NCBI GenBank assembly: GCA_046759285.1
Contig: JBHIBX010000001.1
Coordinates: 1-35,203, forward strand
Length of the DNA: 35,203 nucleotides
Source: Candidatus Omnitrophota bacterium
GTDB taxonomy: Bacteria; Omnitrophota; Gorgyraeia; Tantalellales; Tantalellaceae
Direction: 5' to 3'
The notes under the pieces: model-generated
Seen by the model: only the letters and a program-made list of their open reading frames with translations
Told to the model about the DNA's origin: nothing
The model's database searches: none
Position numbers and translations under genes: made by a program
Part shown: positions 7,429 to 34,937 of the stretch, piece after piece
Layout of the letters: every line of letters starts with the position of its first letter
Numbering within the stretch: position 1 is the first letter of the stretch

Positions 7429-8027
7429 CGCATAGAATCACGGGTATAATACTTTCAGGTGGAAAAAGCGCTAGAATGGGAAGAGATAAGGCGTTTATCT
7501 TATTTTCGGGTAAGCCCTTAATAGGGGTCATGATAGATAACCTGTCAGCGGTTTGTGTTGAGCTGATCATAGCCACAAATAAGCCGTATTTGTATCAGGA
7601 ATACAATGTTCAAGTGTCCATAGACATTATAAAGGACAAGGGTCCATTAGGAGGGATCCACGCCGGATTGATTGCCTCAAGAAATATGTACAATTTTGTC
7701 TGTGCATGTGATATGCCGTTTATAAACCGGGATCTGGTCGGATATATGGCGGAGAATGCCGATGGCTACGATGCGGTCATTGTCGAACATAAACAAGAAC
7801 TTGAGCCGTTATGCGCGGTATATTCCAAAAACTGCATAGAACATATTGAAAAGGAGCTTTATAGGGGTAATTTGAAGATGACGGATTTTCTCAAGAGTAT
7901 CAGGATAAAAGTAATGAAGGAGAGAGATATTTCAAAATTTGATCCCGAAGGTCGTTCTTTCGTGAACGTGAACACAAAAAAAGACTATCAATGTATATTA
8001 CAGGAAACTTTGACAAACAGAAAATAG
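7425..8027 (+). CDS. mobA: molybdenum cofactor guanylyltransferase
   Basis: N-terminal GIILSGGKSARMGRDKA nucleotide-binding motif. About 200 aa, in Moco gene context. Confidence 0.85.
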   Translation: MTHRITGIILSGGKSARMGRDKAFILFSGKPLIGVMIDNLSAVCVELIIATNKPYLYQEYNVQVSIDIIKDKGPLGGIHAGLIASRNMYNFVCACDMPFINRDLVGYMAENADGYDAVIVEHKQELEPLCAVYSKNCIEHIEKELYRGNLKMTDFLKSIRIKVMKERDISKFDPEGRSFVNVNTKKDYQCILQETLTNRK

Positions 8028-8956
8028 ATTATCTTCGTATATCGGTTACGGATAGATGTAATTTAGGATGCATTTACTGCATACCGCGTAACGGTATCAT
8101 GCACAGATCTCATGATGAGCTTTTGACTTTTGAACAGATCCTGAAACTGGCAAGGATATTTGTGTCCTTGGGGATAACCAAGATCCGACTTACCGGGGGC
8201 GAACCCCTTATAAGGAAAGGCGTGGTTGAACTTCTCAGGCGATTAGCCGGGCTTAAGGGCGTAGAAGAGGTGCTATTAACGACAAACGGGATCCTTTTGT
8301 CCAGTTATGCCGAACAGCTTAAAGCGGCGGGCTTGAGAAGAATAAACATAAGCCTGGACACGCTTAAAGAGGACAAGTTCCGGAGGATAACAAGGGGCGG
8401 TTCTCTTCATAACACCCTGGAGGGTATAGAAAAGGCCAAAGAGATCGGCTTAGATCCCGTGAAGTTGAATATGGTTGTTATGAAAGGTATAAACGAAGAT
8501 GAAATAATCGACTTTGCGGATTTTGCTTTCAGTAAGGGAGTAATTTTAAGATATATAGAATTAATGAAAGTCGCCCCCTTATGGAGGGAAGAGTATGTTA
8601 TGCCCATAGAAGAAGTCAAGGGGATTTGTGAAAATGCGTTTAAGCTTCAAAGGACAGAAAACCCAGATTCTGGCCCTGCAGAATATTATGAAGTTGCCGG
8701 GAAGGGCCTTTTGGGGTACATAAAGACAGACGGATATAATTGTATGAGCTGCAGCAGGCTAAGACTTACCTCTATGGGAGAATTCAAAACCTGTCTCTAT
8801 GAACCCCGGGGACTTCACTTAAAAGAACTTTTAGAAAACGGGGGCCGTGATGACGAGATCAGAGAGGCCATAAAGAAGAGATTATCGATAAAGAAAACCA
8901 CGGATTATCGGGATTGGGAGTCCAGCAAAGTTTGTATGGCAAGTGTGGGCGGATAA
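7991..8956 (+). CDS. moaA: GTP 3',8-cyclase (radical SAM)
   Basis: YLRISVTDRCNLGCIYC radical SAM motif, C-terminal cluster C..C...C, and terminal GG. The 37-nt overlap with mobA makes the exact start uncertain. Confidence 0.9.
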   Translation: MYITGNFDKQKIDYLRISVTDRCNLGCIYCIPRNGIMHRSHDELLTFEQILKLARIFVSLGITKIRLTGGEPLIRKGVVELLRRLAGLKGVEEVLLTTNGILLSSYAEQLKAAGLRRINISLDTLKEDKFRRITRGGSLHNTLEGIEKAKEIGLDPVKLNMVVMKGINEDEIIDFADFAFSKGVILRYIELMKVAPLWREEYVMPIEEVKGICENAFKLQRTENPDSGPAEYYEVAGKGLLGYIKTDGYNCMSCSRLRLTSMGEFKTCLYEPRGLHLKELLENGGRDDEIREAIKKRLSIKKTTDYRDWESSKVCMASVGG

Positions 8957-14860: not shown

Positions 14861-16624
14861 ATGAAAAAATACACACTCAAGAATGTAGAAACTCCGGAAC
14901 TTTATGAGGAAATTTTCAGGTACGATAAAGTTCCGAAGATCGTTTTTGATGATGAAACCGCAAAACTCGATCTTCCAAAAGATTTTTGGATTACCTGTAC
15001 AACTTTTCGTGATGGGCAGCAAGCGCGCCCGCCATATACCGTTGAACAGATCGTTGAGCTTTATAAATTTATGCACAGATTAGGAGGCGAGAAGGGCGTT
15101 ATCCGGCAATGTGAGTTTTTCCTTTATAGTGACAAAGATAAGGAAGCCGTTGATGAGTGCAGGAAGCTAGGATATAAGTATCCTGAGGTTACAGGCTGGA
15201 TCAGGGCGAAAAAGGAAGACTTTAAACTCGTCAAACAGATGGGACTTAAAGAAACAGGGATTTTAACTTCTGCTTCCGATTATCATATTTTCCTGAAGCT
15301 GGGCAAGACCCGCAAAGAGGCGATGGAAGGGTACCTCGAGGTCGTCAGGGCCGCTTTGGAAGAAGGCATCATTCCCCGTTGTCATCTGGAAGACTTAACC
15401 CGCGCGGACTTCTACGGCTTTGTAATACCTTTTGTTCAGGAATTGATGAAGCTTTCCGAAGAGAGCAAGATGCCCATAAAGGTAAGAGCGTGTGACACGC
15501 TCGGGTTCGGGATCCCTCATCCCCAGGCGTCTCTTCCAAGGGGCGTTCCAAAACTGATCCAGGGCCTGATAAAAGAAGGCGGCGTTCATTCCGAGCGCCT
15601 TGAATGGCACGGCCATAATGATTTTCATAAAGTCATAGCCAACGCAACGATCGCCTGGCTGTACGGGTGTTCCGCGGCAAACGGCACGCTTCTCGGGTTC
15701 GGGGAAAGAACGGGAAATCCCCCGATAGAGGGGCTTATAATCGACTACATTTCTCTAAAGGGTGATTTCAACGGGGTCGACACCAAGGTTATAACCGAGA
15801 TCGGAGATTACTTCAAGAAGGTGATCAAGGAGCCCGTTTCTAAAAATTATCCTTATGTTGGTGACGAGTTCAATGTCACACGTGCCGGCATTCATGCCGA
15901 TGGAGGAATAAAGAACGAGAGGATTTACAACATATTCGATACGAGAAAACTCCTAGACCGGCCCATAGGAGTCAGCATTACCGATAAATCCGGCGTAGCT
16001 GGAATAACCTACTGGATAAACAGCTTCTTTGATCTGAAAGGAAAAGATGTTGTCGATAAACAACATCCGGGGGTCAAGAGGATACATCAGCTGGTGGACG
16101 CGGAATACCAGAACAAGAGGACGACGAGCATATCAAACCAGGAGATGGTTACATTCACCAAGAAATGCCTGCCTAATCTTTTTGAATCCGAACTTGAAGA
16201 TCTTAAGTCTAAAGCGAAAGAACTGGCTTATGAGATGGTTACAAAAATTGTCAAGGACCCGGCAATCGTTTCAATGGATCCTAAAAAGCAGGAGCCGGTT
16301 CTGCACCAGGTTACCGACACGCACCCGTTTATCAAATTGATCTACGTGACAGACGCGAAAGGGAATAAGATCACAAAAAATATCACGCAAAAACATGATA
16401 CTGAGGCTTACCAGAAAGATTTCGATGAGTTCGGTAATTTTTCTGACCGCGAATGGTTTACCTGCGTCATGGATCAAATGGATACGTGTTTTACGGACCT
16501 TTATACTTCAAAATTTACGGGACTTTTATGTATTACCGTATCTGCGCCGATTCTTGACGACAAAGAAAGTATCATTGGAGTTCTAGGTATCGATATCAAG
16601 TTTGAGGACCTGATAAAGATTTGA
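14861..16624 (+). CDS. HMGL-family acetyl-CoA:2-oxoacid condensing enzyme (Re-citrate synthase / homocitrate synthase-like) with a C-terminal Cache/PDC-like domain
   Basis: TIM-barrel motifs TTFRDGQQ and HGHNDFH...ANGTLLGFGERTGN. The last ~120 aa (IKLIYVTDAKGNK...FSDREWF...LYTSKFTGLLCITVSAPILDDKESIIGVLGIDIKFEDL) follow the Cache-domain pattern. Confidence 0.75.
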   Translation: MKKYTLKNVETPELYEEIFRYDKVPKIVFDDETAKLDLPKDFWITCTTFRDGQQARPPYTVEQIVELYKFMHRLGGEKGVIRQCEFFLYSDKDKEAVDECRKLGYKYPEVTGWIRAKKEDFKLVKQMGLKETGILTSASDYHIFLKLGKTRKEAMEGYLEVVRAALEEGIIPRCHLEDLTRADFYGFVIPFVQELMKLSEESKMPIKVRACDTLGFGIPHPQASLPRGVPKLIQGLIKEGGVHSERLEWHGHNDFHKVIANATIAWLYGCSAANGTLLGFGERTGNPPIEGLIIDYISLKGDFNGVDTKVITEIGDYFKKVIKEPVSKNYPYVGDEFNVTRAGIHADGGIKNERIYNIFDTRKLLDRPIGVSITDKSGVAGITYWINSFFDLKGKDVVDKQHPGVKRIHQLVDAEYQNKRTTSISNQEMVTFTKKCLPNLFESELEDLKSKAKELAYEMVTKIVKDPAIVSMDPKKQEPVLHQVTDTHPFIKLIYVTDAKGNKITKNITQKHDTEAYQKDFDEFGNFSDREWFTCVMDQMDTCFTDLYTSKFTGLLCITVSAPILDDKESIIGVLGIDIKFEDLIKI

Positions 16625-22403: not shown

Positions 22404-23552
22404 ATGGAAAATGTAAAAGATGAAGTAAAGATCGTCGACACCACTCTGCGAGACGGAGAACAGACCGCCGGGGTTGTTTTTTCAAACGACGAAAAAAGGA
22501 AAATCGCCGATCTTTTGGATGAGGCGGGTGTATATCAGATCGAGGCGGGTGTTCCCGCGATGAAAGGCGATGAAAAGCAGGCCATAAAAGACATCGTGAA
22601 GGATAATCACAAGGCCAGTATATTGGGATGGTGCCGCGCGGTATCCGATGATATCAGACAGGCTATCGACTGCGGCCTGGATGCCGTCTGCGTTTCCATA
22701 CCTGTTTCAGATGTCCATATCGAAAAAAAGCTGAAGAAAGACCGGAATTGGGTTCATGAAAATGTAGTCCGGGCCATTAATTTTGCTAAAAGCAACGGGC
22801 TTTACGTTTCCTGCAATGCCGAGGACGCTTCACGCACTAGAATGGAGGATCTAATCACTTTTGCCAGGATCGTTAAAGAAGCTGGGGCGGATCGTATGCG
22901 TTTTTGCGATACAGTAGGTATACTCGGCCCCGAGCAGACTGCAGAAAAGGTAAGGGCTCTGATACATGAGGTGGGGTTGACTATCGAGGTCCACGCGCAT
23001 AACGATTTCGGAATGGCAACTGCGAACAGCATCGCAGGCCTTAAATCCAGGGCTGAATTTGTCAGTGTTACTGTAAACGGATTGGGAGAGAGGGCGGGGA
23101 ATGCGGCTCTTGAAGAAGTTGTTATGGCGCTTAAATACGTTGAGGGGCGTGATATTTCTTTTAATATCTCAAAGTTAAAAGCATTGTCCGAGTTTGTTGC
23201 CAAGGCTTCGGGAAGAGAAGTGCCTGTAAGTAAGCCAATTGTCGGCAAGAATATATTTACACATGAAGCAGGTATCCAGGTCGATGGTCTTGTAAAAGAA
23301 CCGGAAACTTATGAAGTATTCCATCCTGCTGAGATAGGTGGAGAACGGCAGATTGTAATAGGGAAGCACTCAGGGAAAAACGCTGTAAAGATGAAGTTTA
23401 GGGAATTTGGTATTGATATAGATGATGAAATGGCAAAAAATATATTAAATGCTGTCAGAAAAAAGGCCGTAGAAGTTAAACGCCCTTTATTTGATAAAGA
23501 GCTTATGTACATATATTACAGTGAGACCAAAGAATTTGATAAGACGGATTAA
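22404..23552 (+). CDS. short HMGL-family synthase (NifV/AksA-type homocitrate, citramalate or second Re-citrate synthase); substrate unassigned
   Basis: DTTLRDGEQ, HAHNDFGMATANS and NGLGERAGNAALEE motifs. 382 aa with no LeuA-type regulatory domain. Stop overlaps the sdhA start (TAATG). Confidence 0.75.
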   Translation: MENVKDEVKIVDTTLRDGEQTAGVVFSNDEKRKIADLLDEAGVYQIEAGVPAMKGDEKQAIKDIVKDNHKASILGWCRAVSDDIRQAIDCGLDAVCVSIPVSDVHIEKKLKKDRNWVHENVVRAINFAKSNGLYVSCNAEDASRTRMEDLITFARIVKEAGADRMRFCDTVGILGPEQTAEKVRALIHEVGLTIEVHAHNDFGMATANSIAGLKSRAEFVSVTVNGLGERAGNAALEEVVMALKYVEGRDISFNISKLKALSEFVAKASGREVPVSKPIVGKNIFTHEAGIQVDGLVKEPETYEVFHPAEIGGERQIVIGKHSGKNAVKMKFREFGIDIDDEMAKNILNAVRKKAVEVKRPLFDKELMYIYYSETKEFDKTD

Positions 23553-25240
23553 TGAAACAGGAAATTATCATTGTAGGCAGTGGTCTGGCGGGAATGCGGG
23601 CGGCGATTGCTGCAGGATACAAAGGAATAAAATGTATGGTCATTTCTTTGGTTTATCCTGTCAGGTCACACTCTGTAACCGCACAAGGTGGGATCAACGC
23701 CTCGCTTAAGAATGTTGACAAAAACGATTCCTGGGAAAAACACGCTTTTGAAACGGTAAAAGGAAGCGACTACCTTGCTGATCAAAAAGCGGTAACTATT
23801 CTTACTAAAAAAGCGGTTTCTTCTGTCTGTGAATTGGAAAAGTGGGGCGCACCTTTTTCCCGTACCACAGAGGGACGGATCAATCAGCGCCCTTTTGGGG
23901 GAGCGGCTTTTCCCCGCACCTGTTACGCCGAGGACAGAACCGGTCATAATCTCCTCCATACTTTATATCAGCAATGCTTACGCCACAAAGTCCCTTTTTT
24001 AGATGAATGGATGGTAGTTGAGCTTATTGTGAAAGACAACCGTTGTCTGGGGGTAGTGGCATTAAACTTAAAATCGGGGGAAATAGAGGCCATACCGACA
24101 AAAGCGGTAATTATGGCTACCGGAGGAGCGGGAAGGATTTACGCTCAGTCAACTAATGCCCTTATCAACAGCGGCACAGGTATTGCTCTAGCCTATAGAG
24201 CGGGTGTGGGCGCAAAAGATATGGAATTTGTGCAGTTTCATCCTACCTCTCTCTACGGAACGAATATCCTTAGTACTGAAGGGGCCCGGGGTGCAGGAGG
24301 ATATCTTTTAAATAAAAACGGCGAGCGGTTCATGAAGAACTATGCCCCTCATCTTATGGAGCTCGCCCCGAGAGACATAGTAGCACGTGCGATTAAAACC
24401 GAGATACTTGAAGGCAGGGGCATTGAAGACGCTTATGTATATCTTGATCTAAGGCATCTGGGGGAAGACAAGATAAATGAAAAGTTGCCGGGCATAAGAG
24501 AAATAGGGATAAGGTTTGCTGGTATAGATGCGGTTGAAGCCCCTTTACCTGTTCAACCCGGACAACATTACACAATGGGTGGAATTGATTGCGATATTAA
24601 CTGCCAAACTTCTGTTCCCAACCTCTTTGCAGCGGGAGAGTGTTCGTGCGTTTCTGTTCATGGGGCCAACAGGTTAGGAGGAAATTCTCTTATGGAGACA
24701 GTTGTTTTCGGCAGGATTGCCGGAGAGAATGCTGCCCAATGCTGCCATGAGATTGAATACAAAGAGGATGCGGATGCGCTCTTTAGTTCTATGAATGAAA
24801 ACGAGAAAAGGATCTCTTCTCATTTTACTTCAAAAGGGAAAGAAAGAGTGGGAAAATTGCGCAAAAAGTTAAGAGAATTAATGATAGAGAAGGTAGGCAT
24901 TTTTCGCAAGGAAAGCGAACTAAAAGAAGCAATTGAAGAAATAAAAGAAATCAGGAAAAGGTATAAAGCAGTATCTTTAACAAGTTCAGGGAAGAAATTT
25001 AATTTGGAATTAATCACTGCTTTAGAGGTGGAATGCATGATTGATCTGGCACTGGTGATAGGGGAAGGAGCTTTAAAAAGAGAGGAGAGCCGTGGTTCGC
25101 ATTTTCGTACCGATTTTCCGAAGCACGACGATAAAAACTGGCTTAAACATACTCTTGCTCATTATACGTCCGATGGCCCGGAACTTTCTTATAAGGAAGT
25201 TGACCTATCTACCTGGCAACCGAAAGAAAGAAAATATTGA
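23552..25240 (+). CDS. sdhA: succinate dehydrogenase / fumarate reductase flavoprotein subunit
   Basis: GSGLAG FAD motif. RSHSVTAQGGINA carries the His used for covalent FAD. Also HPTS...TEGARGAGGYLLN, HYTMGGI, and ESRGSHFRTDFPKHDDKNWLKHT. Confidence 0.88.
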   Translation: MKQEIIIVGSGLAGMRAAIAAGYKGIKCMVISLVYPVRSHSVTAQGGINASLKNVDKNDSWEKHAFETVKGSDYLADQKAVTILTKKAVSSVCELEKWGAPFSRTTEGRINQRPFGGAAFPRTCYAEDRTGHNLLHTLYQQCLRHKVPFLDEWMVVELIVKDNRCLGVVALNLKSGEIEAIPTKAVIMATGGAGRIYAQSTNALINSGTGIALAYRAGVGAKDMEFVQFHPTSLYGTNILSTEGARGAGGYLLNKNGERFMKNYAPHLMELAPRDIVARAIKTEILEGRGIEDAYVYLDLRHLGEDKINEKLPGIREIGIRFAGIDAVEAPLPVQPGQHYTMGGIDCDINCQTSVPNLFAAGECSCVSVHGANRLGGNSLMETVVFGRIAGENAAQCCHEIEYKEDADALFSSMNENEKRISSHFTSKGKERVGKLRKKLRELMIEKVGIFRKESELKEAIEEIKEIRKRYKAVSLTSSGKKFNLELITALEVECMIDLALVIGEGALKREESRGSHFRTDFPKHDDKNWLKHTLAHYTSDGPELSYKEVDLSTWQPKERKY

Positions 25241-28026
25241 TGGCAGCAAGTAAAGTAAATTTCAGAATAAGAAGGTTTGATCCCGAAAAAGATAAGAGCG
25301 AATATGCTTTCTATGAAATTCCCCATGTGAAGGGGATGACAGTTTTGGAAGGCTTGTGGTACATAGTGGACAATATAGATGGCAGTTTAAGTTTTCGCTA
25401 TTCCTGTCGGGGGGCGGTCTGTGGATCCTGCGCAATGAAGATTAACGGGGTAATCGATCTTGCATGTCATATTCAGATTTCCTCTCTGCTTCCAGGAGTG
25501 ATTAACGTTGAACCTCTTCCTTATTTTACGGTTATAAAAGACCTTGTTGTGGATATGGAACCCTTTCTGGAAAAATTTAATTCCATTAAACCTTATTTTT
25601 CCAAGATTAAGACAGAAGGCGGAGAAAATCTTCAAACTCCACAGGATCGAAAAAAAATAGAAAAAGCAGTTACTTGTATTTTATGCGCTGCTTGTCATTC
25701 GGCATGCCCGTTAAACGCGATGGATGAAGATTATCTCGGACCGGCGACTCTTACCGCAGTCAATAGGTTTGCTATGGATAGTCGCAGCACCGGCTGCAAG
25801 GATCGTATTTTAAACATCAGTAATCTGGGAGATTTTGGGGGATGTATGAAGATCTCCAGATGTTCAAAGGTGTGCCCCAGGGATATCGAGCCTGCCGAAC
25901 GCATCGATGAAATTAAGCAGTGCGTTTCTTCCTTTCAGCCGCCTTCGGCCGAGAAAGTCAACACTGTCTGCGGTTTTTGCTCTGTAGGGTGCGGGTTAAC
26001 CATTTGGAAAAACGAGGATGGTACTTTGCAACTGACAACCGATTCAGATTATACCGTAAATAAAGGCCAGGCCTGTCCAAAGGGATGGGACGCCCTACTG
26101 CCATTACAGGCAAAAGACCGCGCGAGAACTCCTTATACGAGAAACAGCAAAGGGGATTTTGTGCCTGTAGACTGGGATGAAGCTTTGCAAAAATTTACCG
26201 ATAGTTTTAAAAATATCCAAGAGAAATATGGCAATGATTCTATAGCCTTTATAAGTACGGGCCAAATCCCTACCGAAGAGATGGCTTTTCTTGGATGCTT
26301 GACAAAATTTGGAATGGGAATTCTTCATGGTGACGGTAACACCCGCCAGTGCATGGCTACAGCGGCTGCTGCATATAAGCAATCATTTGGTTTTGATGCG
26401 TCGCCTTATACTTATAAGGATTTTGAAGAGTCTGATGTGATTATCTTTGTTGGAGGGAATCCTTTTATCGCGCATCCTATCATGTGGGAAAGAGTATGTT
26501 TGAATGAAAATAATCCGACAACTGTTATTATAGATCCCCGAAAAACGGAAACCGCTCACTGGGCAAGCAAACATCTCAGCATCATTCCCAAATCAGATGC
26601 TTCTCCTTTTTACTGTCTTGCCCATATTCTTATCAAGCGCGACGCTGTTGATAAAAGTTTTATTGACAATCATACTTCCGGTTTTGAGGAGTTTAAAGAA
26701 TTCCTCGAGAAATTTTCTCCTAAAACTGTAAGTAAAGAAACAGGGCTGAAAGAATCCGAGATCCATAAATTGGCGGATTTAATACAAAACGGCAGAAAAG
26801 TTTCCTTTTGGTGGACGATGGGGGTCAATCAGAGTTATATGGGAGTGAGGACGGCTCAGGCAATCATCAACCTCACTCTTCTTACGGGGAACATAGGACG
26901 AGCCGGGACAGGTCCTAATTCCATTACCGGTCAATGTAATGCCATGGGTTCTCGGCTTTTCAGCAATACTACATCTCTATTAGGCGGACATGACTTTTCC
27001 AACTCTGAACATAGAAAAAAGATTGCAAAATGTCTGGGAATAAAGGAGAAACAAATTCCGGAAGACAAAGGATGGGCTTACGATCAAATTGTCGATGGTA
27101 TTGCTGAAGGTAAGATCAAAGGTTTGTGGATAATCGCCACTAATCCGATACATTCCTGGGTAAATCATTCTCATCTTGAGAAAGTCATAGGAAATCTTGA
27201 ATTTTGCGTGCTTCAGGATATGTACCATACTACTGAAACTGCTAAGTATGCACATTTAGTTCTTCCGGCTGCAGGATGGGGAGAGAAAAGAGGGACGTTT
27301 ATCAATTCTGAAAGAAGGATCGCTGTCGTGAATAAAGCGGCTGATCCTCCAGGAGAAGCTTTACCCGATTTTGAAATTTTTAAACACGTTGCCGATTACT
27401 GGGGTTGCGGGGATCTTTTCGAAAAATGGGATTCAACCGAGGATATATTTCAATCCTTAAAAAGGATATCAAAAGGGACTCCCGCTGATATAAGCGGAAT
27501 AAAAGATTATAAAATGCTTGAGAAAAGCGGTGGAATACAATGGCCCTTTCCTGAAGGCAGTTCAATTAAAGAAAATGAACGTCGTTTATTTGAAGACAGA
27601 AAGTTTTACACTCCCGATAAGAGGTCTAAGTTTATTTTTGAAGATATCAAATCTCCTCCAGAGCCAGTTAATAAAGAATTTCCGTTTTTGCTTTTAACCG
27701 GCAGAGGAACTGTCGCCCAATGGCATACCCAGACCAGAACCAGCAAATCCGATCGACTTAAGAAAATATATCCGGAAGAAATTTACATGGAAATCAACCC
27801 CGAAGACGCTGAAAAGTTGAATATCAATGACGGTGAAGAGGTAACTGTTTCCTGTTGTCGAGGGGAAATAAGGGTTAAGGCGTGTCTGACCTATGATATT
27901 CCTGGAGGAGAAGTTTTTGTACCCATGCATTATAGCGAAACAAATGAATTGACTTTTCCAGCGTTTGATCCTTATTCAAGACAACCGTCTTATAAAAGTT
28001 GTGCGGTAAATATAATAAGTCCTTGA
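25237..28026 (+). CDS. fusion protein: SdhB/FrdB-type iron-sulfur subunit (aa 1-228) joined to a cytoplasmic Nas/NarB/Nap-type molybdopterin oxidoreductase (aa ~245-929)
   Basis: The N-terminal part has CRGAVCGSC...C (2Fe-2S), CILCAACHSACP and CMKISRCSKVCP. From aa 245 there is CGFCSVGCG...C (Mo-enzyme 4Fe-4S), NTRQCMATAAAAYKQSFG (Cys Mo ligand, no His as in FDH), and a LLLTGRGTVAQWHTQTRT C-terminal barrel. No Tat signal. One uninterrupted ORF, with an ATGA overlap onto sdhA. Confidence 0.8.
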   Translation: MMAASKVNFRIRRFDPEKDKSEYAFYEIPHVKGMTVLEGLWYIVDNIDGSLSFRYSCRGAVCGSCAMKINGVIDLACHIQISSLLPGVINVEPLPYFTVIKDLVVDMEPFLEKFNSIKPYFSKIKTEGGENLQTPQDRKKIEKAVTCILCAACHSACPLNAMDEDYLGPATLTAVNRFAMDSRSTGCKDRILNISNLGDFGGCMKISRCSKVCPRDIEPAERIDEIKQCVSSFQPPSAEKVNTVCGFCSVGCGLTIWKNEDGTLQLTTDSDYTVNKGQACPKGWDALLPLQAKDRARTPYTRNSKGDFVPVDWDEALQKFTDSFKNIQEKYGNDSIAFISTGQIPTEEMAFLGCLTKFGMGILHGDGNTRQCMATAAAAYKQSFGFDASPYTYKDFEESDVIIFVGGNPFIAHPIMWERVCLNENNPTTVIIDPRKTETAHWASKHLSIIPKSDASPFYCLAHILIKRDAVDKSFIDNHTSGFEEFKEFLEKFSPKTVSKETGLKESEIHKLADLIQNGRKVSFWWTMGVNQSYMGVRTAQAIINLTLLTGNIGRAGTGPNSITGQCNAMGSRLFSNTTSLLGGHDFSNSEHRKKIAKCLGIKEKQIPEDKGWAYDQIVDGIAEGKIKGLWIIATNPIHSWVNHSHLEKVIGNLEFCVLQDMYHTTETAKYAHLVLPAAGWGEKRGTFINSERRIAVVNKAADPPGEALPDFEIFKHVADYWGCGDLFEKWDSTEDIFQSLKRISKGTPADISGIKDYKMLEKSGGIQWPFPEGSSIKENERRLFEDRKFYTPDKRSKFIFEDIKSPPEPVNKEFPFLLLTGRGTVAQWHTQTRTSKSDRLKKIYPEEIYMEINPEDAEKLNINDGEEVTVSCCRGEIRVKACLTYDIPGGEVFVPMHYSETNELTFPAFDPYSRQPSYKSCAVNIISP

Positions 28027-28039
28027 GGAATGTGATGTC

Positions 28040-29341
28040 ATGTATAGCTTAAAAGGCAGTCCAAAAGAAGGGTTCTGGGGAGCAACATTAGGCTTTTTTA
28101 TAGGCTTTGCGGCTGTTTCTTTATTCGGTCCGGCAGCGGCGAAGTTTAAGGATGCCATGCAGTTGAGTCCGGTAATGGTCGGGATATTAGTGGCGATGCC
28201 GTCTTTATCCGGTTCTATTCTGCGTATTCCTTTCTCTGCCTGGGTAGATACCACCGGGGGAAGAAAGCCTTTTCTTGTTCTCCTTGCTTTTTCCATCATA
28301 GGGATGTTAGCTTTATCTTTAGTAATTTTTATCCTTTATCCCGACCATCTCAATGTACATTTTTATCCGCTTCTGCTTTTATTGGGGCTATTGAGCGGAT
28401 GCGGTATTGCTACATTTTCCGTAGGCATAAGTCAAGTTTCCTACTGGTTTCCTCAAAAAAGGCAGGGCACGGCTTTAGGAACTTATGCCGGGATTGGCAA
28501 TATTGCGCCCGGAGTGTTTTCATTTCTTCTTCCCATAGCTCTTAGAGGATTAGGGTTGGGAGGGGCATATCTTGCATGGCTTATATTTTTGGTAGCAGGA
28601 ACCGGTCTTTATTTTATGATGGGCAAAAACGCTTGGTATTTTCAGCTGCGCTATCAGGGGGCATCACCTGATGAGGCAAAAAATATCGCCGCTAAAAATG
28701 GGCAGGAAGTCTTTCCCGCAGGAAGTCTTACCGAGAGTCTTTTGCTTTCAGCTAGGACACGGAAAACCTGGATTCTTGTGGCAGTTTATTTTACTACTTT
28801 TGGAGGATTCATTGCCCTTACTGCATGGCTACCAATTTATTGGAAATCGTTTTATAATGTAACTATAGTAAACGCGGGTTTCTTAACTGCTCTTTATTCT
28901 ATTCTTACTTCTGTGATCCGTATCGGCGGGGGTGTTATTTCTGATAAATTTGGGGGAGAGAGAACGGCTATTTTATCTCTTTTTGTTATGTTGATCGGAG
29001 CCATTTTGATGACCCTATCACGCAATTTCAGACTCTCTGTATTTGCCGAAATCCTGATGGCGGTGGGAATGGGAGTAGGTAATGCCGCTGTGTTTAAACT
29101 GGTCCCACAGAAAATCCCTCAAGCGATAGGCGGAGCAGCCGGATGGGTCGGAGGCTTGGGGGCATTGGGAGGATTTGTTGTACCTCCTTTAATGGGGTCT
29201 TTTGTCCGCATATCTGGGATCAATGGTTATGCCCAGGGGTTTTCTGTGTTTATCATTTTAGGGCTTATCTCTATTATTGTTGTAAGCATTTTAAGCGGAG
29301 GCATGGAAGGTGAAGATATCACGCAAAGAAGCGCAGAGTAA
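28040..29341 (+). CDS. narK: MFS nitrate/nitrite porter (NarK/NNP family)
   Basis: 12 TM segments. SGSILRIPFSAWVDTTGGRKPF resembles the E. coli NarK SGALLRVPYSFMVPIFGGRR region. GMGVGNAAVFKLVP is the NNP-type signature. Confidence 0.75.
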   Translation: MYSLKGSPKEGFWGATLGFFIGFAAVSLFGPAAAKFKDAMQLSPVMVGILVAMPSLSGSILRIPFSAWVDTTGGRKPFLVLLAFSIIGMLALSLVIFILYPDHLNVHFYPLLLLLGLLSGCGIATFSVGISQVSYWFPQKRQGTALGTYAGIGNIAPGVFSFLLPIALRGLGLGGAYLAWLIFLVAGTGLYFMMGKNAWYFQLRYQGASPDEAKNIAAKNGQEVFPAGSLTESLLLSARTRKTWILVAVYFTTFGGFIALTAWLPIYWKSFYNVTIVNAGFLTALYSILTSVIRIGGGVISDKFGGERTAILSLFVMLIGAILMTLSRNFRLSVFAEILMAVGMGVGNAAVFKLVPQKIPQAIGGAAGWVGGLGALGGFVVPPLMGSFVRISGINGYAQGFSVFIILGLISIIVVSILSGGMEGEDITQRSAE

Positions 29342-29711
29342 GTTCATAGTAAAAATTGAAGAACTCAGCGGGGAAAATATCTATAAATGCTACCAGTGCG
29401 GAAAGTGTTCCGCCGGCTGTCCTATTGTTGGTCACATGGATATCCTGCCCAACCAGATCATCCGTTTGATCCAGCTTGGCTCTGAAAAAGAAGTGCTGGA
29501 TTCCAAGACCATCTGGCTTTGTTCAAGCTGTTTGCAGTGCGCCGCTAAGTGCCCCAAAGGCGTGGATGTGGCCAAGATAATGGATACCCTGAGAGAGGTA
29601 TTAAAAAGAGAAGGGGTAGACAAGGTGGAGCTTAAAAAAATAGCCGAAAAGATGTGGAAGAAGCTGCCCCAGCAGTTGATCGTTTGCAGGTTTCGTAAAA
29701 GTAGTGATTGA
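29310..29711 (+). CDS. hdrC: heterodisulfide reductase subunit C-like 4Fe-4S protein
   Basis: CYQCGKCSAGCP and CSSCLQCAAKCP motifs with the HdrC-type spacing. GTG start with GGAGG upstream. Overlaps the narK 3-prime end by 32 nt. Confidence 0.8.
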   Translation: MKISRKEAQSKFIVKIEELSGENIYKCYQCGKCSAGCPIVGHMDILPNQIIRLIQLGSEKEVLDSKTIWLCSSCLQCAAKCPKGVDVAKIMDTLREVLKREGVDKVELKKIAEKMWKKLPQQLIVCRFRKSSD

Positions 29712-29740
29712 AAAATTGACTTTTAACACAGGAGGAGAAA

Positions 29741-29887
29741 ATGGAGAAAGAAAAATGTAAAAAAAAGACCCTTGTGATTGACAAGGAAGAGAAAGCCAAA
29801 AAGAATGATAAAAAGGAGTGGAAGAAGCCGACTCTCGAGGATGTGTCCGGAAGGGTGATGGCACAGCCGTATATCAGATTCACCTAA
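29741..29887 (+). CDS. 48-aa PqqA-like precursor peptide (candidate RiPP/cofactor precursor); not in the supplied ORF track
   Basis: Manual translation gives MEKEKCKKKTLVIDKEEKAKKNDKKEWKKPTLEDVSGRVMAQPYIRFT. GGAGGAG (29731-29737) lies 3 nt before the ATG. The gene sits directly upstream of a PqqD-family gene and a radical SAM gene. Confidence 0.7.
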   Translation: MEKEKCKKKTLVIDKEEKAKKNDKKEWKKPTLEDVSGRVMAQPYIRFT

Positions 29888-29962
29888 TCTGTGTCATAGT
29901 GGAAGACAAGAGGTAAATTGACGTATGCTGTAAGTCATGGTCTCATTGAAAGGGGTGTCCTC

Positions 29963-30214
29963 ATGCAATTCGAGAAACATGTGAAAGTACGTAAGGAGAA
30001 GTTTGGAGCAGTGATTTTTGAAACATTGCGCGAGAAAGTGCTCATAACAAATGAAACAGGCGCGGAAATATTGAGTCTACTTGAAGGGGGAAAGGAGTCA
30101 AAGGATTTAATTACTGACTTGAATGAAAATTATAACGGTGATACATCGACGATCGAGAACGATGTGGAGGAGTTCGTTTCGATGTTGAGAGGCAAAAATA
30201 TAATCAAAAGTTAG
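29963..30214 (+). CDS. PqqD-family peptide-binding protein (RiPP recognition element)
   Basis: About 83 aa. FGAVIFETLREKVLITNETGAEILSLLEG...DVEEFVSMLRGKNII follows the PqqD winged-helix pattern. The ATG at 29963 has AAAGGGG upstream; the listed TTG at 29918 is less likely. Confidence 0.75.
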   Translation: MQFEKHVKVRKEKFGAVIFETLREKVLITNETGAEILSLLEGGKESKDLITDLNENYNGDTSTIENDVEEFVSMLRGKNIIKS

Positions 30215-30222
30215 GAGAAAAA

Positions 30223-31206
30223 ATGATAGAAAATGAATTACGCCCAACGTCAACTATACAGCAAACCGAAGGAGACAGTTTCGATCATTTTGTCTCTCCT
30301 TTATTTATCGCCTGGCAATTAAATTCAGCCTGTAATCTTGATTGCCTGCATTGTTGCGAAGAGGCAGGCCACAGCATGCCGGATGAGCTTACCGGGGAAG
30401 AAATAATGGATTTCTGCAGGCAGATAGTCGACCTTAAGATACCGTATGCGGCGATCTCAGGCGGAGAACCTATGCTGCATCCGGATTTTTTCAAGATCAG
30501 CGAGTTCCTTCGAAATGCCGATGTGAGCCTGAAGGTAGAGACGAACGGGCTTTTCATAAATCGCAAAACAGCTCAGCGATTTGCCGAACTTAATTTCCGT
30601 TCTGTGCAGATAAGCGTTGACGGTGCCACACCCGAAACCTTTGGTCAATTAAGGGGCAGAGGAAACTGGCAGAAGGTCATTGACGCCTGCAAGCATCTTA
30701 TAGAAGCTGGTTGCAATACGGAGGTAGTGTTCGTTCCTACAAAATTTAATATCCATGAAACCGGAGACGTCATCGAAATGGCATACGACATGGGTGTTTA
30801 CGGTTTCTACACGGGTAAGATCATGCGTATCGGGCGAGCGGCGCAAAACTGGGATATCCTGTGTCCATCCGATGAAGAATATGAAAAATTCTTCGATGTT
30901 CTAAAAGAAAAACAAGCTAAATATGAGGGCAAAATGAAGGTGTATTATTATCCTTATGATGTTATAGAGGAATTAAAATATCGCCTGGAACATCCTTCTG
31001 CGAGTCTTCTTGTTATTCCCAATGGCAAGGTCAAGCTTATCGGGCCGCTTCCGTTTATCTGCGGTGATCTCCGTAAGCGGGGTCTAACTGAGATTTGGAG
31101 AGAATACAAGAAAGCCTGGAGAAACCCAGAGGTTATTGCTTTTACAAAGAGAGTTATTGATAGCCCAGAACTCTTGAAAGAAGCCAATAAATGGAAAGAA
31201 CTTTAA
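30223..31206 (+). CDS. radical SAM enzyme of the peptide-maturase (PqqE/SPASM-related) type with a degenerate SPASM tail
   Basis: CNLDCLHC (CxxxCxxC) with the SGGEP glycine motif. The C-terminal VIPNGKVKLIGPLPFICGDL...LTEIW resembles the end of a SPASM domain, but only 2 Cys follow the barrel. Confidence 0.8.
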   Translation: MIENELRPTSTIQQTEGDSFDHFVSPLFIAWQLNSACNLDCLHCCEEAGHSMPDELTGEEIMDFCRQIVDLKIPYAAISGGEPMLHPDFFKISEFLRNADVSLKVETNGLFINRKTAQRFAELNFRSVQISVDGATPETFGQLRGRGNWQKVIDACKHLIEAGCNTEVVFVPTKFNIHETGDVIEMAYDMGVYGFYTGKIMRIGRAAQNWDILCPSDEEYEKFFDVLKEKQAKYEGKMKVYYYPYDVIEELKYRLEHPSASLLVIPNGKVKLIGPLPFICGDLRKRGLTEIWREYKKAWRNPEVIAFTKRVIDSPELLKEANKWKEL

Positions 31207-32081
31207 CAGGATTAATAAAGCTTATTCGATACAGGTTTTTATTAATTGCGGGTCTTCTGCCTTATTGCCTTGGGTCAGCAGTCGCGTTTTATTTCCGTGG
31301 GGAATTTAGTCCTTTTTTGTTTCTTGTGGGTCTGGCAGGTCTTTTTTTTGTACTGGTCGGTGTTGAGGCTTTCAATGAATTTTTCGACTGGCAACTTGGA
31401 ACAGACCGAGTGTTCCAAGTAGATCCCAAACCGGTGACTAAGAGCACTTTTTTTGTTGGCATTGTTGCTTTTTTTATTGCTCTAATTGTTGCCATTTTTC
31501 TGACGTTGAAGTTAGGTGTGGCGATAATTATACTTTCAGTTATTGGATTCTTCGCGGCTCTATTTTATCTTGGACCACCGATCAAGTTGGCGTATCGTGG
31601 GTTTGGGGAAATTACGATTTCGCTTTCTTATGGTCCCTTTATGATGATGGGAAGTTATTATGTTCAGACACAGCGCATAGATGTTCTGCCGCTTTTTGTA
31701 TCGGTAGTTCCCGCACTTCTTTTATTTGCGATATCGATACTGAATGAAGTACCAGACTATTTTTCCGATAGGCTTGTCGGCAAGCGGAACATATGCGTGA
31801 GAATCGGGCAAAAGAATGTAATGAAATTGTATGGAGGAGTTTTGATTCTCTTTTATGCAATTTTAATGATAGGGTTATTTTTAGGAAACTTTCCACGCCT
31901 GACTTTGCTTGCACTGGTTTGTTTACCAATTTCATTGATAACTTATACCATTGGGATCCGAGCATGTGAAAACCCATATAGGTTCATTTCGACGATTCGC
32001 AGCGGCATAATTCAATATGTTATTATCCTTAGTATATTTATTACGGGTTACATAGTTGACAAACACTTTTACGCGCCTTAA
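31191..32081 (+). CDS. UbiA-superfamily (MenA-like) membrane aromatic prenyltransferase
   Basis: About 8-9 TM segments. First Asp-rich motif NEFFDWQLGTD and second motif NEVPDYFSDRLVGKRN (compare MenA N-D-x-x-D...G-x-D and D-x-x-S-D-R-x-x-G-K). Overlaps the radical SAM gene by 16 nt. Confidence 0.8.
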   Translation: MERTLTGLIKLIRYRFLLIAGLLPYCLGSAVAFYFRGEFSPFLFLVGLAGLFFVLVGVEAFNEFFDWQLGTDRVFQVDPKPVTKSTFFVGIVAFFIALIVAIFLTLKLGVAIIILSVIGFFAALFYLGPPIKLAYRGFGEITISLSYGPFMMMGSYYVQTQRIDVLPLFVSVVPALLLFAISILNEVPDYFSDRLVGKRNICVRIGQKNVMKLYGGVLILFYAILMIGLFLGNFPRLTLLALVCLPISLITYTIGIRACENPYRFISTIRSGIIQYVIILSIFITGYIVDKHFYAP

Positions 32082-32100
32082 CGTGATTTAAGAGAATTAA

Positions 32101-32988
32101 ATGATAAAAATTCCTTATTTTCCAGGATGCACATTGACCAATAAAGCCAAGGGTCTTAATGAGACCGCGAAAGAGTGCATACGCATACTCGGAGTCGAGC
32201 TTAAAGAACTGGAAAACTGGTATTGCTGCCAGGCGAATTACTCCACCGTCACCGATAATCTTATGAATCACCTGGCGCCGGTCAGGACCCTGGTTTCGGC
32301 GAAAAAAGAGGGAGATAAACTGGCCGTTCTTTGCTCCACGTGTTATTACGTGCTTAAAAGGGTGAATCGTCTGATGGAGTCGGATGAAGAAAAGCGCGAG
32401 ACGGTCTTTGATTTTTTAGAAGAAGAATATAAGGGCCCCATAGAGATCGTTCACTTTTTGGAGGTTATCAGGGACGAGGTGGGTTTCGAAAAGGTTAAAG
32501 AAAAAGTGAAGGTAAGTCTTGAGAATATGGCGGTAGCTCCCTACTACGGCTGTCAGCTGCTCCGTCCTTTTGAAGAGATGGCATTTGACGACCCTTATGC
32601 ACCGACGATCTTTGAGAAGTTTCTCGAAGCCCTGGGCTGTCGGGTAGTGGATTATCCCTTTAAGACGGAGTGCTGCGGGTCTTTTTTAACCATATCCGAG
32701 ACCGAGGCGGTAGAAGACTGTGTTTCGAGGATACTGAATTACGCCGCTAACAGCGGCGCGGAAACGATAGCAACGAGCTGCCCTCTATGCAATTTTAATC
32801 TTGACTGGAGCCAGGAAGGCATATCCAGCAAAGATGAAGAGTTTAAGAAGATCCCCGTGCTTTATCTTACGGAGCTCATGGCTCTGGCTCTGGGGGTTGA
32901 AATAACGGATGAGATATGGGATGAACACGTCGTTGATCCACGACCGTTTTTAAAGAAAAAAGGATATTTAAAGAAGGTTTCCACATGA
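32101..32988 (+). CDS. hdrB: heterodisulfide reductase subunit B-like protein (two CCG domains)
   Basis: PYFPGCT...WYCC and PYYGCQLLRP...CCGS...SCPLC cysteine-rich CCG motifs. 295 aa. Confidence 0.85.
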   Translation: MIKIPYFPGCTLTNKAKGLNETAKECIRILGVELKELENWYCCQANYSTVTDNLMNHLAPVRTLVSAKKEGDKLAVLCSTCYYVLKRVNRLMESDEEKRETVFDFLEEEYKGPIEIVHFLEVIRDEVGFEKVKEKVKVSLENMAVAPYYGCQLLRPFEEMAFDDPYAPTIFEKFLEALGCRVVDYPFKTECCGSFLTISETEAVEDCVSRILNYAANSGAETIATSCPLCNFNLDWSQEGISSKDEEFKKIPVLYLTELMALALGVEITDEIWDEHVVDPRPFLKKKGYLKKVST

Positions 32989-34937
32989 AAAAAAGAATCG
33001 GTGTTTTTCTATGCTGGTGCGGGTCTAATATCTCGGATGTTGTAGACGTCGATAAGGTTCTCGAGACAATGAAGAAATATCCGGGCGTAGCTTACGCGGA
33101 ATATTATAAATATTTCTGCTCTGAACCGGGCCAGGATATGATAATAGACGCCATCAAAAAGCATAAGCTTGACGGCGCGGTTATAGCCGCCTGTTCGCCC
33201 GCCATGCACGAGGCGACTTTCAGGCGTGCGGCCAAGCGTGCCGGACTTAACGAGTATGAGCTGGAAATAGCGAATGTTCGCGAGCAATGCAGTTGGGTCC
33301 ATCGCATGCATAAAGGGGAGGCTACCAAAAAGGCCATTAAATTGATCTCGGGCATGGTGGAGAAAGTCAAACAGAACGTACCGCTGGAACCTATCGCGAC
33401 TCCCCTGGTTAAGCGCGCTCTTGTGATAGGCAGCGGCATAGCCGGCATGCAGGCAGCGCTGGATATTGCCAATAGCGGTTATCCCGTCATGCTGGTCGAA
33501 AGAGAGCCTTCAATAGGCGGACATATGGCGCAGCTCGCGGAAACTTTTCCCACGCTTGACTGTTCTCAGTGTATTATCACGCCCAAGATGGTGGAGGTTG
33601 CGCAGCACCCGAAGATAAAACTCGTCACGTACGCGGAAGTTCAAAAAGTAAGCGGCAGTGTCGGTAACTTTAAGGCCGAGATCCGCGTCAAACCCGCCTA
33701 TGTCGATAGAGAAAAGTGCACGGCCTGCGGCATATGTATTGAAAAATGTCCGGTAAAAGTCCCTTCCGAATTTGACGAAAAACTGGGCGAAAGAAAAGCA
33801 ATATATGTGAGCTCACCTCAGGCGGTACCCAATAAGCCGGTTATAGACGCCAAACATTGTCTATATCTATTGCAAGGGAAGTGCGGGATCTGCTCAAAGG
33901 TCTGTGAGATCAACGCGGTTGATTTCGAGCAGAAAGAGACCATTATAGAAGAAGAGTTCGGGGCTATTGTCATTGCTACCGGTTTCGACCTCTATCCTAC
34001 TGATAAGTTAGAAGAGTATGGGTATGGGGAGTTTAAGGACGTGATCAGCGGGCTTGAATTTGAAAGGCTGAATTCCGCATCCGGCCCGACAGAAGGCCAG
34101 ATAGTCCGGCCGTCCGACAGAACGATCCCGAAAGAAGTCGTTTTCTTGCAGTGCATAGGATCAAGGGATCCCGAAAGCGGCATGCCTTATTGTTCAAAGA
34201 TCTGCTGCATGTATACGGCGAAACACGCGATGCTCTACAGAAGAAAAGTCCCGGATGGACAAGCATACGTGTTTTATATAGATATCAGGTCGGGCGGAAA
34301 AGGGTACGAAGAATTTGTCCAGCGCGGCATGGAGGAGGAAAGAACGCTTTATTTTCGCGGAAAGGTAAGCAAAATATTTAAGGAGGATGACAGAATTGTG
34401 GTCTGGGGGGTCGATACCCTGACCGACAGAAAGATCGAGATAAAAGCTGATATGGTAGTGCTTGCCACGGCAATAGTTCCCCGCGATGATGCTAAGGAAT
34501 TGGCTAAAATTTTGAATGTAAGTACGGACGAATTCGGTTTTTATACCGAAGCGCATGTGAAATTGCGTCCAGTTGAGAGCACAACGCGCGGTATTTTCTT
34601 CGCCGGATGCGCTCAGGGGCCGAAAGACATACCCGACTCGATAAGCCAGGCCGGTTGCGCGGCCAGCAAAGTGGCCTATTTATTTTCTCAGGAGAAGCTG
34701 TATAGCGAGCCCGTTGTAGCCTGTGTGAACGAGGAGCTCTGCACGGGTTGCGGACTATGCGTCACGGCCTGTCCTTATGACGCCAGAGAAATAGACCCGA
34801 AGAAAAAAATAGCGATAGTCAAGGAAGCGCTTTGCCAGGGTTGCGGGGCCTGCGTCACGGTATGCCCGAACAAGGCATGCAAGCTGAAAAACATGACCAT
34901 GGAGCAGGTTTTCCGTATGATCGAAAAACTGGAATGA
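32985..34937 (+). CDS. hdrA: heterodisulfide reductase subunit A-like FAD/FeS flavoprotein
   Basis: N-terminal IGVFLCWCGSNI. FAD motif VIGSGIAGMQAA. Ferredoxin motifs CTACGICIEKCP, CGICSKVC, CTGCGLCVTACP and CQGCGACVTVCP. 650 aa. Overlaps the hdrB stop. Confidence 0.88.
   Translation: MKKRIGVFLCWCGSNISDVVDVDKVLETMKKYPGVAYAEYYKYFCSEPGQDMIIDAIKKHKLDGAVIAACSPAMHEATFRRAAKRAGLNEYELEIANVREQCSWVHRMHKGEATKKAIKLISGMVEKVKQNVPLEPIATPLVKRALVIGSGIAGMQAALDIANSGYPVMLVEREPSIGGHMAQLAETFPTLDCSQCIITPKMVEVAQHPKIKLVTYAEVQKVSGSVGNFKAEIRVKPAYVDREKCTACGICIEKCPVKVPSEFDEKLGERKAIYVSSPQAVPNKPVIDAKHCLYLLQGKCGICSKVCEINAVDFEQKETIIEEEFGAIVIATGFDLYPTDKLEEYGYGEFKDVISGLEFERLNSASGPTEGQIVRPSDRTIPKEVVFLQCIGSRDPESGMPYCSKICCMYTAKHAMLYRRKVPDGQAYVFYIDIRSGGKGYEEFVQRGMEEERTLYFRGKVSKIFKEDDRIVVWGVDTLTDRKIEIKADMVVLATAIVPRDDAKELAKILNVSTDEFGFYTEAHVKLRPVESTTRGIFFAGCAQGPKDIPDSISQAGCAASKVAYLFSQEKLYSEPVVACVNEELCTGCGLCVTACPYDAREIDPKKKIAIVKEALCQGCGACVTVCPNKACKLKNMTMEQVFRMIEKLE

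Follow-up and report, generated by a model that had tools for sequence, protein, structure and literature searches.

What does a cell make with a gene set that joins a PqqA-like precursor peptide and its putative maturation enzymes to a prenyltransferase of the quinone type? The question is raised by four closely packed genes that stand between hdr genes in the window analysed here, which is the entire 35,203-bp contig of a Candidatus Omnitrophota metagenome-assembled genome (MAG). They encode a small peptide, a PqqD-family protein, a radical S-adenosylmethionine (SAM) enzyme and a UbiA-superfamily prenyltransferase, and together are referred to below as the cassette. The analysis gives strong grounds for regarding the cassette as a peptide-maturation unit whose pathway includes the UbiA enzyme. 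Beyond this we favour, at a probability of roughly one half, the reading that the cassette is self-contained and horizontally mobile and matures a ribosomal peptide into a polyprenylated membrane redox carrier. The features of the cassette are as follows (RRE, recognition element for RiPPs, peptides that are ribosomally synthesised and then modified post-translationally).

29730–29735, plus strand: Shine-Dalgarno sequence AGGAGG, 5 nt before the peptide ATG, read from the sequence
29741–29887, plus strand: precursor peptide gene, 48 aa; open reading frame (ORF) with a Lys-rich variable N-terminal part and a conserved 22-residue C-terminal part
29819–29884, plus strand: conserved peptide core, residues 27–48, WKKPTLEDVSGRVMAQPYIRFT
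29963–30214, plus strand: PqqD-family peptide chaperone (RRE), 83 aa, ATG at 29963; Pfam PqqD match
30223–31206, plus strand: radical SAM enzyme, 327 aa; Pfam Radical_SAM match, CxxxCxxC at residues 37–44, predicted twitch/SPASM-like C-terminal fold without the cluster cysteines
31191–32081, plus strand: MenA/UBIAD1-like UbiA-superfamily polyprenyltransferase, 296 aa; Pfam UbiA match

A four-gene unit conserved across at least 12 phyla

The peptide and PqqD genes are 75 nt apart, the PqqD and radical SAM genes 8 nt apart, and the radical SAM and UbiA genes overlap (−16 nt). The end of an hdrC-like gene (29711) lies 29 nt before the peptide ATG, and an hdrB-like gene follows the end of the UbiA gene after 19 nt. 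The first-pass annotation, which was made from the letters of the DNA, had described the four genes and these spacings exactly. Profile searches likewise bear out a genuine peptide, PqqD, radical SAM and UbiA unit: the three larger proteins score above the Pfam cutoffs for PqqD (51 bits against 23, E = 1.5e-13), Radical_SAM (83.5 against 29.5) and UbiA (81.8 against 34.2). No model of Pfam or NCBIfam release 20.0 beyond superfamily level was above cutoff for the cassette proteins.

One genome per GTDB species was scanned with the radical SAM enzyme, which gave 130 relatives; 80 loci were fetched and read by tblastn of the window proteins, the high-GC proteobacterial loci by tblastn together with annotated contigs (individual loci carry L numbers below). 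The unit occurs in about 80 species-level genomes of at least 12 phyla. A single radical SAM gene, in the order peptide-PqqD-radical SAM-UbiA, is found in about 60 loci, and five of the single-type loci (L009, L013, L028, L043 and L044) have a tandem duplicate of that gene. Dozens of unrelated genomes share the identical four-gene order, so that the arrangement lies far beyond what chance would give. Peptide homologues adjoin PqqD, radical SAM and UbiA genes in 78 loci, so that the small ORF is indeed conserved upstream of homologous PqqD/radical SAM pairs; PqqD adjoins the radical SAM gene in nearly every locus whose contig extends far enough; and UbiA accompanies the radical SAM gene in 82 of 84 loci, including 41/41 of those with long flanks, so that its linkage to PqqD and radical SAM genes is a conserved one. 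At L045 (597–2627) a cassette-type radical SAM gene is present without UbiA and is directly followed by a polyprenyl-diphosphate synthase gene, and at L044 (519–2488) two radical SAM paralogues stand at the contig start with no UbiA gene after them.

A second architecture, PqqD-radical SAM-UbiA-radical SAM-peptide-radical SAM, was seen in about 20 proteobacterial loci (L064–L087; for example L086, 9738–14194, Rhodovibrio salinarum) and in one Elusimicrobiota single-cell genome. Its three radical SAM genes form distinct paralogue clades, all with CxxxCxxC, and UbiA stands among the peptide-maturation genes. Cultured carriers of this six-gene form are the phototrophs Rhodovibrio salinarum, R. 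sodomensis DSM 9895 and Rhodothalassium salexigens. The flanks in Rhodovibrio and Rhodothalassium are unrelated and the cassette stands alone there; it is therefore self-contained.

The nearest relatives of the window's radical SAM enzyme come from WOR-3 (82% identity), a Pseudomonadota MAG (79%) and Dethiobacter (77%), while those of other Omnitrophota are at 61–68%. Since the nearest relatives belong to other phyla, the cassette moves horizontally. Source-labelled homologues of 67–83% identity come from Dethiobacter, Nitrospirota, Planctomycetota, Thermodesulfobacteriota, Lentisphaeria, Aminicenantia and Acidobacteriota, and carry no other name than ‘radical SAM protein’, ‘hypothetical protein’ or ‘MoaA/NifB/PqqE/SkfB family radical SAM enzyme’. 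A full-text literature search, which reached few subscription journals so that an earlier description is possible, found no description of the cassette; nor did it find a RiPP pathway with a UbiA-family enzyme, in line with the first-pass annotation, which knew of no characterised one.

The peptide is translated and has a near-invariant, PqqA-like core

In every lineage the last 22 residues of the peptide are near-invariant and read W-x-(K/T)-P-x-(L/M)-E-D-V-S-x-x-(V/I)-M-A-Q-P-Y-I-R-F-T-stop. The proteobacterial form is no exception, although its enzymes are only 41–46% identical. By comparison, the Lys-rich N-terminal part differs in sequence and length between loci, and is almost missing from the peptide of L034 (MMKEWEKPTLEDVSEEIMAQPYIRFT). 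At only 26 aa the L034 peptide is PqqA-sized, and this naturally short form suggests that the peptide can do without its Lys-rich part; its gene lies after UbiA on the opposite strand (2498–2578, minus). The L034 contig is labelled Candidatus Hadarchaeota archaeon and may be mis-binned, the cassette neighbours (MoeA, TatC) being bacterial-looking.

Across the 78 loci all 78 DNA versions of the core are distinct, and entropy summed by codon position 1, 2 and 3 is 8.3, 5.8 and 29.9 bits, the third codon positions being saturated. The concentration of variation at third positions across so many differing DNA versions identifies the peptide as a translated product under strong purifying selection. 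A profile search of 1.84 billion representatives gave 99 peptide matches. Clustering of the homologues at 90% identity gives 58 protein clusters, and at 50% it gives 99 representatives; all clusters that bear a source name are called ‘hypothetical protein’. The most constrained element is the C-terminal P-[Y/F]-I-R-F-[T/S]. Among the 93 short (<150 aa) representatives from the profile search, 82 have the Tyr, and four residues before it stands Met, rarely Ile, Val or Lys. Rare variants mark the positions open to change: Y to F (four clusters), T48S, Q42R and Met40 to Ile or Val. The W-x-x-P...D-V-S segment is the probable PqqD-binding part.

The name ‘PqqA-like’ given in the first-pass annotation is apt. 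The core aligns without gaps to Klebsiella pneumoniae PqqA (BLASTP E = 6e-4; 9 of 200,000 shuffles reach the score), the PqqA sequence having been checked against an annotated pqqA gene. The two share WKKP, D and Y-I in register, and in both peptides four residues follow the Tyr. Searches of the peptide against Pfam and NCBIfam gave no match to a PqqA model, and tblastn of the core against 72,556 plasmids gave no match.

Phe replaces Tyr44 in the four representative clusters mentioned above. The replacement is genuine: one of these clusters belongs to a complete cassette, L088 (356–2560), whose radical SAM and UbiA enzymes are 48% and 41% identical to those of the window; another Phe variant, L089 (295–1668), has the peptide, PqqD and radical SAM genes on a contig that ends before UbiA. 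In this subfamily (L088, L089) the peptide ends in MAQPFIRFT and its leader reads P-E-L-x-D/N-V-T.

The radical SAM enzyme resembles peptide maturases and UbiA retains its prenyl-diphosphate motifs

All NCBIfam equivalog models for PqqD, MftB and lasso-peptide proteins are below cutoff for the cassette PqqD protein. The radical SAM enzyme, similarly, is far below cutoff in its NCBIfam matches, of which the best is MftC (128 bits against 265), followed by AhbD, NirJ, StsB, WgkB, SkfB and PqqE. Its SAM-cluster motif is C37-x3-C41-x2-C44, and these three cysteines are invariant in 126 sequences. An alignment of 12 sequences of the single-radical SAM type had C45, C156 and C280 as the only further invariant cysteines; across the 126 sequences these occur at 80%, 61% and 83%. 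With no cysteine universal beyond the three of the SAM cluster, the family is without the canonical ligands of a SPASM or twitch cluster. Pfam SPASM gave no match in the enzyme. An AlphaFold2 model (mean predicted local distance difference test score 82) has a C-terminal β-hairpin and helices that overlay best on SkfB, PqqE and SuiB, and by sequence and fold together these peptide maturases are the nearest solved relatives. A SPASM-like tail that has lost the auxiliary-cluster cysteines, as the enzyme was described at first pass, is a fair summary, and the grouping with peptide enzymes also held.

The best NCBIfam matches of the UbiA protein are all MenA models (NF004751, 94 bits against 264; TIGR00751, 62 against 102), and human UBIAD1 is its sole sequence match in the PDB. 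No MenA equivalog cutoff is reached, and the same is true of the UbiA protein in the Phe-variant cassette. The first Asp-rich motif is N62-E63-x2-D66-x3-G70-x-D72 and the second N185-x3-D189-x3-D193-x3-G197-K198-x-N200; both are kept at ≥99% in 73 cassette-linked homologues. Because both motifs are intact in 73/73, the protein should be active as a prenyltransferase. An IspB/HepT-like long-chain polyprenyl-diphosphate synthase is encoded near the cassette in 15–16 loci, mostly directly after UbiA.

The neighbours are quinone-linked respiratory modules rather than Hdr

Genes for Hdr proteins lie within 10 kb of the cassette in only three of 84 loci, those of the window, L027 and L039. The cassette thus has no conserved linkage to hdr, and hdr nesting is peculiar to these three loci; the general association is with quinone-linked respiratory modules. 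In five loci nqrABCDEF is directly upstream of the cassette, and in L056 and L059 the cassette is inserted between nqrE and nqrF. Two short Brocadiaceae contigs (L057, L058) have an nqrF-like gene after UbiA, any upstream nqr genes lying beyond the contig. A betaproteobacterial locus (L070, 3753–9500) has Wolinella-type frdC-frdA-frdB directly upstream, all above the NCBIfam equivalog cutoffs, together with a gene for a 669-aa TfrB/HdrD-like CCG protein, also directly upstream. Further neighbours are FrdCAB/SdhAB, PsrB/NrfD/molybdopterin modules and molybdenum-cofactor genes, and elsewhere a [NiFe] hydrogenase with an HdrD-like subunit and Mtr-type outer-membrane cytochromes. NQR, NrfD subunits and SdhE/HdrD-type CCG proteins connect to the quinone pool; the Wolinella-type fumarate reductase uses menaquinol, and fumarate reduction requires a low-potential quinone.

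A membrane histidine kinase and a response regulator are encoded near the cassette in 11–15 loci (for example L015, 9367–10716; L032, 12869–13267), and in one Lentisphaerota locus a class I methyltransferase gene follows UbiA. Neither an exporter nor a dedicated protease is conserved next to the cassette.

Several side observations belong to these neighbourhoods. A conserved protein of ~150 aa without a Pfam or NCBIfam match follows nqrF in the nqr-linked loci (L015, 5873–6334, and four others). Loci L071, L073 and L074 resemble the frd-linked L070. The sole near-full-length NCBIfam match of the histidine kinase is to the RegB/PrrB/ActS redox-sensor family, at 107 bits and below cutoff. Finally, L057 has a second MenA-like gene (7572–8759), followed by MobB, 3.4 kb downstream of the cassette UbiA, and its product outscores the cassette UbiA on MenA models (157 and 148 bits).

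The first-pass annotation had suggested that the phenol of Tyr44 is C-prenylated like 4-hydroxybenzoate, giving a lipid-anchored peptide specific to the flanking Hdr-like and Sdh-like complexes. The position of the window cassette between hdrC and hdrB-hdrA, HdrA/MvhD genes 3–6 kb from the cassette in L027 and L039, CCG proteins flanking the cassette in two unrelated lineages, and the prevalence of Tyr among the short representative peptides are all consistent with this. We nevertheless consider it unlikely, given how seldom hdr genes are nearby, the unrelated flanks in Rhodovibrio and Rhodothalassium, and the Phe that replaces Tyr in the complete cassette L088 and in the contig-end-cut L089. 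The Phe-bearing cassettes indicate that a phenolic OH is not obligatory, which weakens the case for Tyr as a 4-hydroxybenzoate-like acceptor.

The cassette within the window contig

In the window the cassette is flanked by the following genes, all large genes of the contig being on one strand.

29310–29711: short HdrC-like di-cluster ferredoxin, 133 aa; Fer4 match
32101–32988: HdrB/SdhE-like double-CCG protein; CCG match
32985–34937: HdrA
From 34934, running off the contig end: second hdrC-like gene, in ATGA overlap with the hdrA stop

Co-transcription of the cassette with hdr had been called almost certain. The shared strand and the short gaps stand, and promoter- and terminator-like sites are no commoner than in shuffled sequence and are missing from both cassette-hdr junction gaps; on these grounds we regard co-transcription as plausible, a lower grade than first given. 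An Rfam search of 28000–33000 gave no match.

Earlier in the contig are a PsrB/NrfD/molybdenum-oxidoreductase/chaperone module, TatC and molybdenum-cofactor genes. The contig also encodes AsrABC-like genes with an FNT transporter, and a tricarboxylic acid (TCA) cycle operon with Mdh, KorABCD, SucCD, SdhA and two homocitrate-synthase-like genes. The remaining blocks are an SdhB-Nas/Fdh-like molybdoenzyme fusion, a NarK-like transporter and the hdr/cassette block itself. The fusion, which we regard as unusual, is a single 929-aa ORF (25237–28026) that joins an SdhB/FrdB iron-sulfur subunit (residues 4–230) to a NasC/formate-dehydrogenase-like molybdopterin catalytic subunit (239–926); its start overlaps the sdhA stop, and the NarK-like MFS transporter gene is next (28040–29341). 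The two homocitrate/isopropylmalate-synthase-family genes in the TCA-cycle operon are at 22404–23552 and 14861–16624; the former is above the NifV cutoff (494 against 463), but its context suggests a Re-citrate synthase. A second radical SAM gene of the contig (7991–8956), which had joined the cassette enzyme through single-linkage clustering, is not part of the system: its product scores 317 bits against the MoaA cutoff of 284 and is a bona fide MoaA.

What the cassette may make

From the genes and their motifs, the conserved synteny, the selection on the peptide and the neighbourhoods we infer that the peptide is the substrate, where and how the radical SAM enzyme acts on it, that the prenyl acceptor derives from it and that the product has a redox role. 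In the pathway that we envisage, the PqqD-type chaperone would bind the 48-aa precursor through its W-x-K-P-x-L-x-D-V-S segment and hand it to the PqqE/SkfB-like radical SAM enzyme, which would modify the invariant C-terminal P-[Y/F]-I-R-F-[T/S]. The likeliest reaction would be a C-C cross-link onto the aromatic residue, in register with the cross-linked Tyr of PqqA. The MenA/UBIAD1-like transferase, whose gene appears to be translationally coupled to the radical SAM gene, would then put a long polyprenyl chain on the modified peptide or on an excised piece of it, and in many genomes this chain may be supplied by the adjacent IspB/HepT-like synthase. Polyprenylation is proposed because a MenA-like transferase is obligatory and translationally coupled and a polyprenyl-diphosphate synthase is often adjacent. 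The acceptor is probably peptide-derived; besides the aromatic residue at position 44, candidates are Phe47, the hydroxyl or carboxylate of Thr/Ser48, Arg46 and a ring made in the radical SAM step. The product would remain in the membrane as a carrier, probably of low potential, that acts at quinone-pool level, and the operon contexts point to such a role in anaerobic respiration. It could serve NQR, fumarate reductase/succinate dehydrogenase, NrfD-type molybdoenzymes and Isp-type hydrogenases, and, in the window contig, the Hdr/Sdh-like CCG proteins.

A number of points weigh against a polyprenylated redox carrier. Every chemical step is inferential. One subfamily, with a complete cassette among its members, has Phe in place of Tyr44, and a quinone on a Phe ring would need extra hydroxylases, none of which is encoded in the cassette. 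The invariance of the entire C-terminal stretch could mean that the functional entity is the intact peptide, not an excised head group. At least one respiratory neighbour is present in only 18 of the 41 long-flank loci, and the neighbour counts are not phylogenetically independent.

A second alternative is that the cassette makes a lipidated natural product of the RiPP kind, for example a signal or an antimicrobial lipopeptide that is anchored in the membrane or secreted; it would take no part in electron transfer, and the respiratory neighbours would be incidental. A peptide with an RRE and a radical SAM enzyme is standard RiPP architecture; the radical SAM tree is incongruent with taxonomy, which indicates horizontal transfer of the kind typical of natural-product clusters; 23 of the 41 long-flank loci are without a respiratory neighbour; and prenylated RiPPs such as the cyanobactins and ComX are known. 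However, bioactive RiPP cores normally diversify, whereas this core is essentially identical from Bacillota to Alphaproteobacteria though the enzymes are 41–50% identical. The cassette also has no conserved transporter, immunity gene or leader protease, and is repeatedly embedded within nqr or hdr operons. We therefore think this alternative improbable.

Least probable is a juxtaposition of two functions, in which UbiA is the ordinary menaquinone (1,4-dihydroxy-2-naphthoate) prenyltransferase and the peptide, PqqD and radical SAM genes make a separate soluble PQQ (pyrroloquinoline quinone)- or mycofactocin-like cofactor: the MenA and UBIAD1 matches and the adjacent polyprenyl-diphosphate synthase, which fits the need of a quinone pathway, speak for it, but the MenA scores are far under cutoff, L057 has its second, higher-scoring MenA-like gene, and UbiA is interleaved with the radical SAM paralogues and peptide in the six-gene form, overlaps the radical SAM stop in the window and keeps its linkage in nearly all loci across the phyla sampled. 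Each of the three alternatives conflicts with at least one tested feature.

In its boldest form, which we put forward as tentative and regard as less likely than the general case, the membrane redox carrier would belong to a new class of membrane electron carrier, with a peptide-templated, PqqA-like head group built by a radical SAM enzyme and a polyprenyl tail from a MenA-like enzyme. To our knowledge, PQQ and mycofactocin are the only redox cofactors so far derived from a ribosomal peptide, and both are soluble; such a carrier, if real, would be the third and the first that is lipid-soluble. It would supply or replace a low-potential quinone in the anaerobic respiration of Planctomycetota (including anammox relatives), Omnitrophota, Elusimicrobiota, Lentisphaerota and scattered Proteobacteria.

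At its most extreme, this would amount to an unrecognised route to the ‘menaquinone’ reported in Rhodovibrio. Menaquinone-10 has been reported for this genus alone within its family (PMC7179689), which we take as a lead and not as a test. The genome paper on Rhodothalassium does not discuss quinones. There is no apparent way for Tyr or Phe backbone atoms to close an all-carbon ring; a genuine naphthoquinone made from the peptide is thus chemically unlikely and is kept only as the extreme reading.

The cassette joins the logic of peptide cofactors to a quinone-type polyprenyltransferase and so points to an undescribed lipid-linked cofactor or quinone route. In its degree of conservation the peptide equals a housekeeping protein, so that the product is probably physiologically central where present. 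Most carriers are uncultured anaerobes, and they are of environmental importance; among them are anammox relatives, Omnitrophota, Elusimicrobiota and Phycisphaerae, and the electron-transport chains of such organisms are now reconstructed with classical quinone pathways only. The UbiA superfamily would also join the enzymes known in RiPP-type pathways. With three cultured phototroph carriers, the question is directly testable.

Comparison with known systems

Tyrosine-derived prenylquinones offer a first parallel, and a lead only: plastoquinone and tocopherol (via homogentisate) and the caldariellaquinone of Sulfolobales have an aromatic-amino-acid head group and a tail attached by a UbiA-family enzyme. 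Their source, unlike that proposed here, is free tyrosine, with no ribosomal peptide, PqqD or radical SAM maturase. Prenylated RiPPs (the cyanobactin F-family/ABBA systems and ComQ/ComX) resemble the cassette in that a ribosomal peptide receives an isoprenoid, as we propose for the cassette. The known systems use soluble ABBA- or ComQ-type enzymes, short C5–C15 donors and variable cores, whereas the core of the cassette peptide is invariant, the enzyme is of the integral-membrane UbiA type and the polyprenyl donor is probably long.

With MenA and UBIAD1 the cassette transferase shares the fold family, both Asp-rich prenyl-diphosphate motifs and the frequent adjacent long-chain polyprenyl-diphosphate synthase; it differs in scoring under every MenA cutoff and in its place within a peptide-maturation cassette. 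The radical SAM/SPASM peptide maturases have in common with it the CxxxCxxC core, a PqqD/RRE partner and an adjacent conserved precursor (here in 78 loci). The cassette enzyme is unlike them in having no 7-Cys SPASM or 4-Cys twitch cluster domain, yet its fold still overlays SkfB and PqqE.

Mycofactocin (MftA/MftB/MftC) is closer in its logic of a peptide-derived redox cofactor with a near-invariant C-terminal core, and MftC is the top NCBIfam match of the cassette radical SAM enzyme, albeit far under cutoff (128 against 265). The differences are an MftB score of 18 against a cutoff of 33, the lack of MftD/E/F partners and of SPASM clusters, a peptide that ends in I-R-F-T and not in Gly-Val-Tyr, and a prenyltransferase where mycofactocin has a glycosyltransferase.

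The nearest comparison is with PQQ biosynthesis. The Glu that PqqE cross-links, four residues before the Tyr, is Met40 in the cassette peptide; the cassette radical SAM enzyme is without SPASM cysteines; the UbiA prenyltransferase is obligatory; and the scores are under cutoff for PqqD (TIGR03859, 38 against 46) and PqqE (TIGR02109, 74 against 381). The eight annotated loci show neither PqqB nor PqqC, with no TENA/THI-4 (PqqC) gene among them, and the single Lactamase_B gene (L002/L003) is on the opposite strand and not conserved. What the two systems share is a cofactor-like gene set without an exporter, a stand-alone PqqD-family protein, a radical SAM enzyme structurally close to PqqE, and a small precursor in which a W-K-K-P start is followed 18 residues later by Tyr and then by Ile and three further residues. 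The maturation logic itself is already known, and what is new here is the coupling of peptide-derived cofactor maturation to a UbiA-type polyprenyltransferase.

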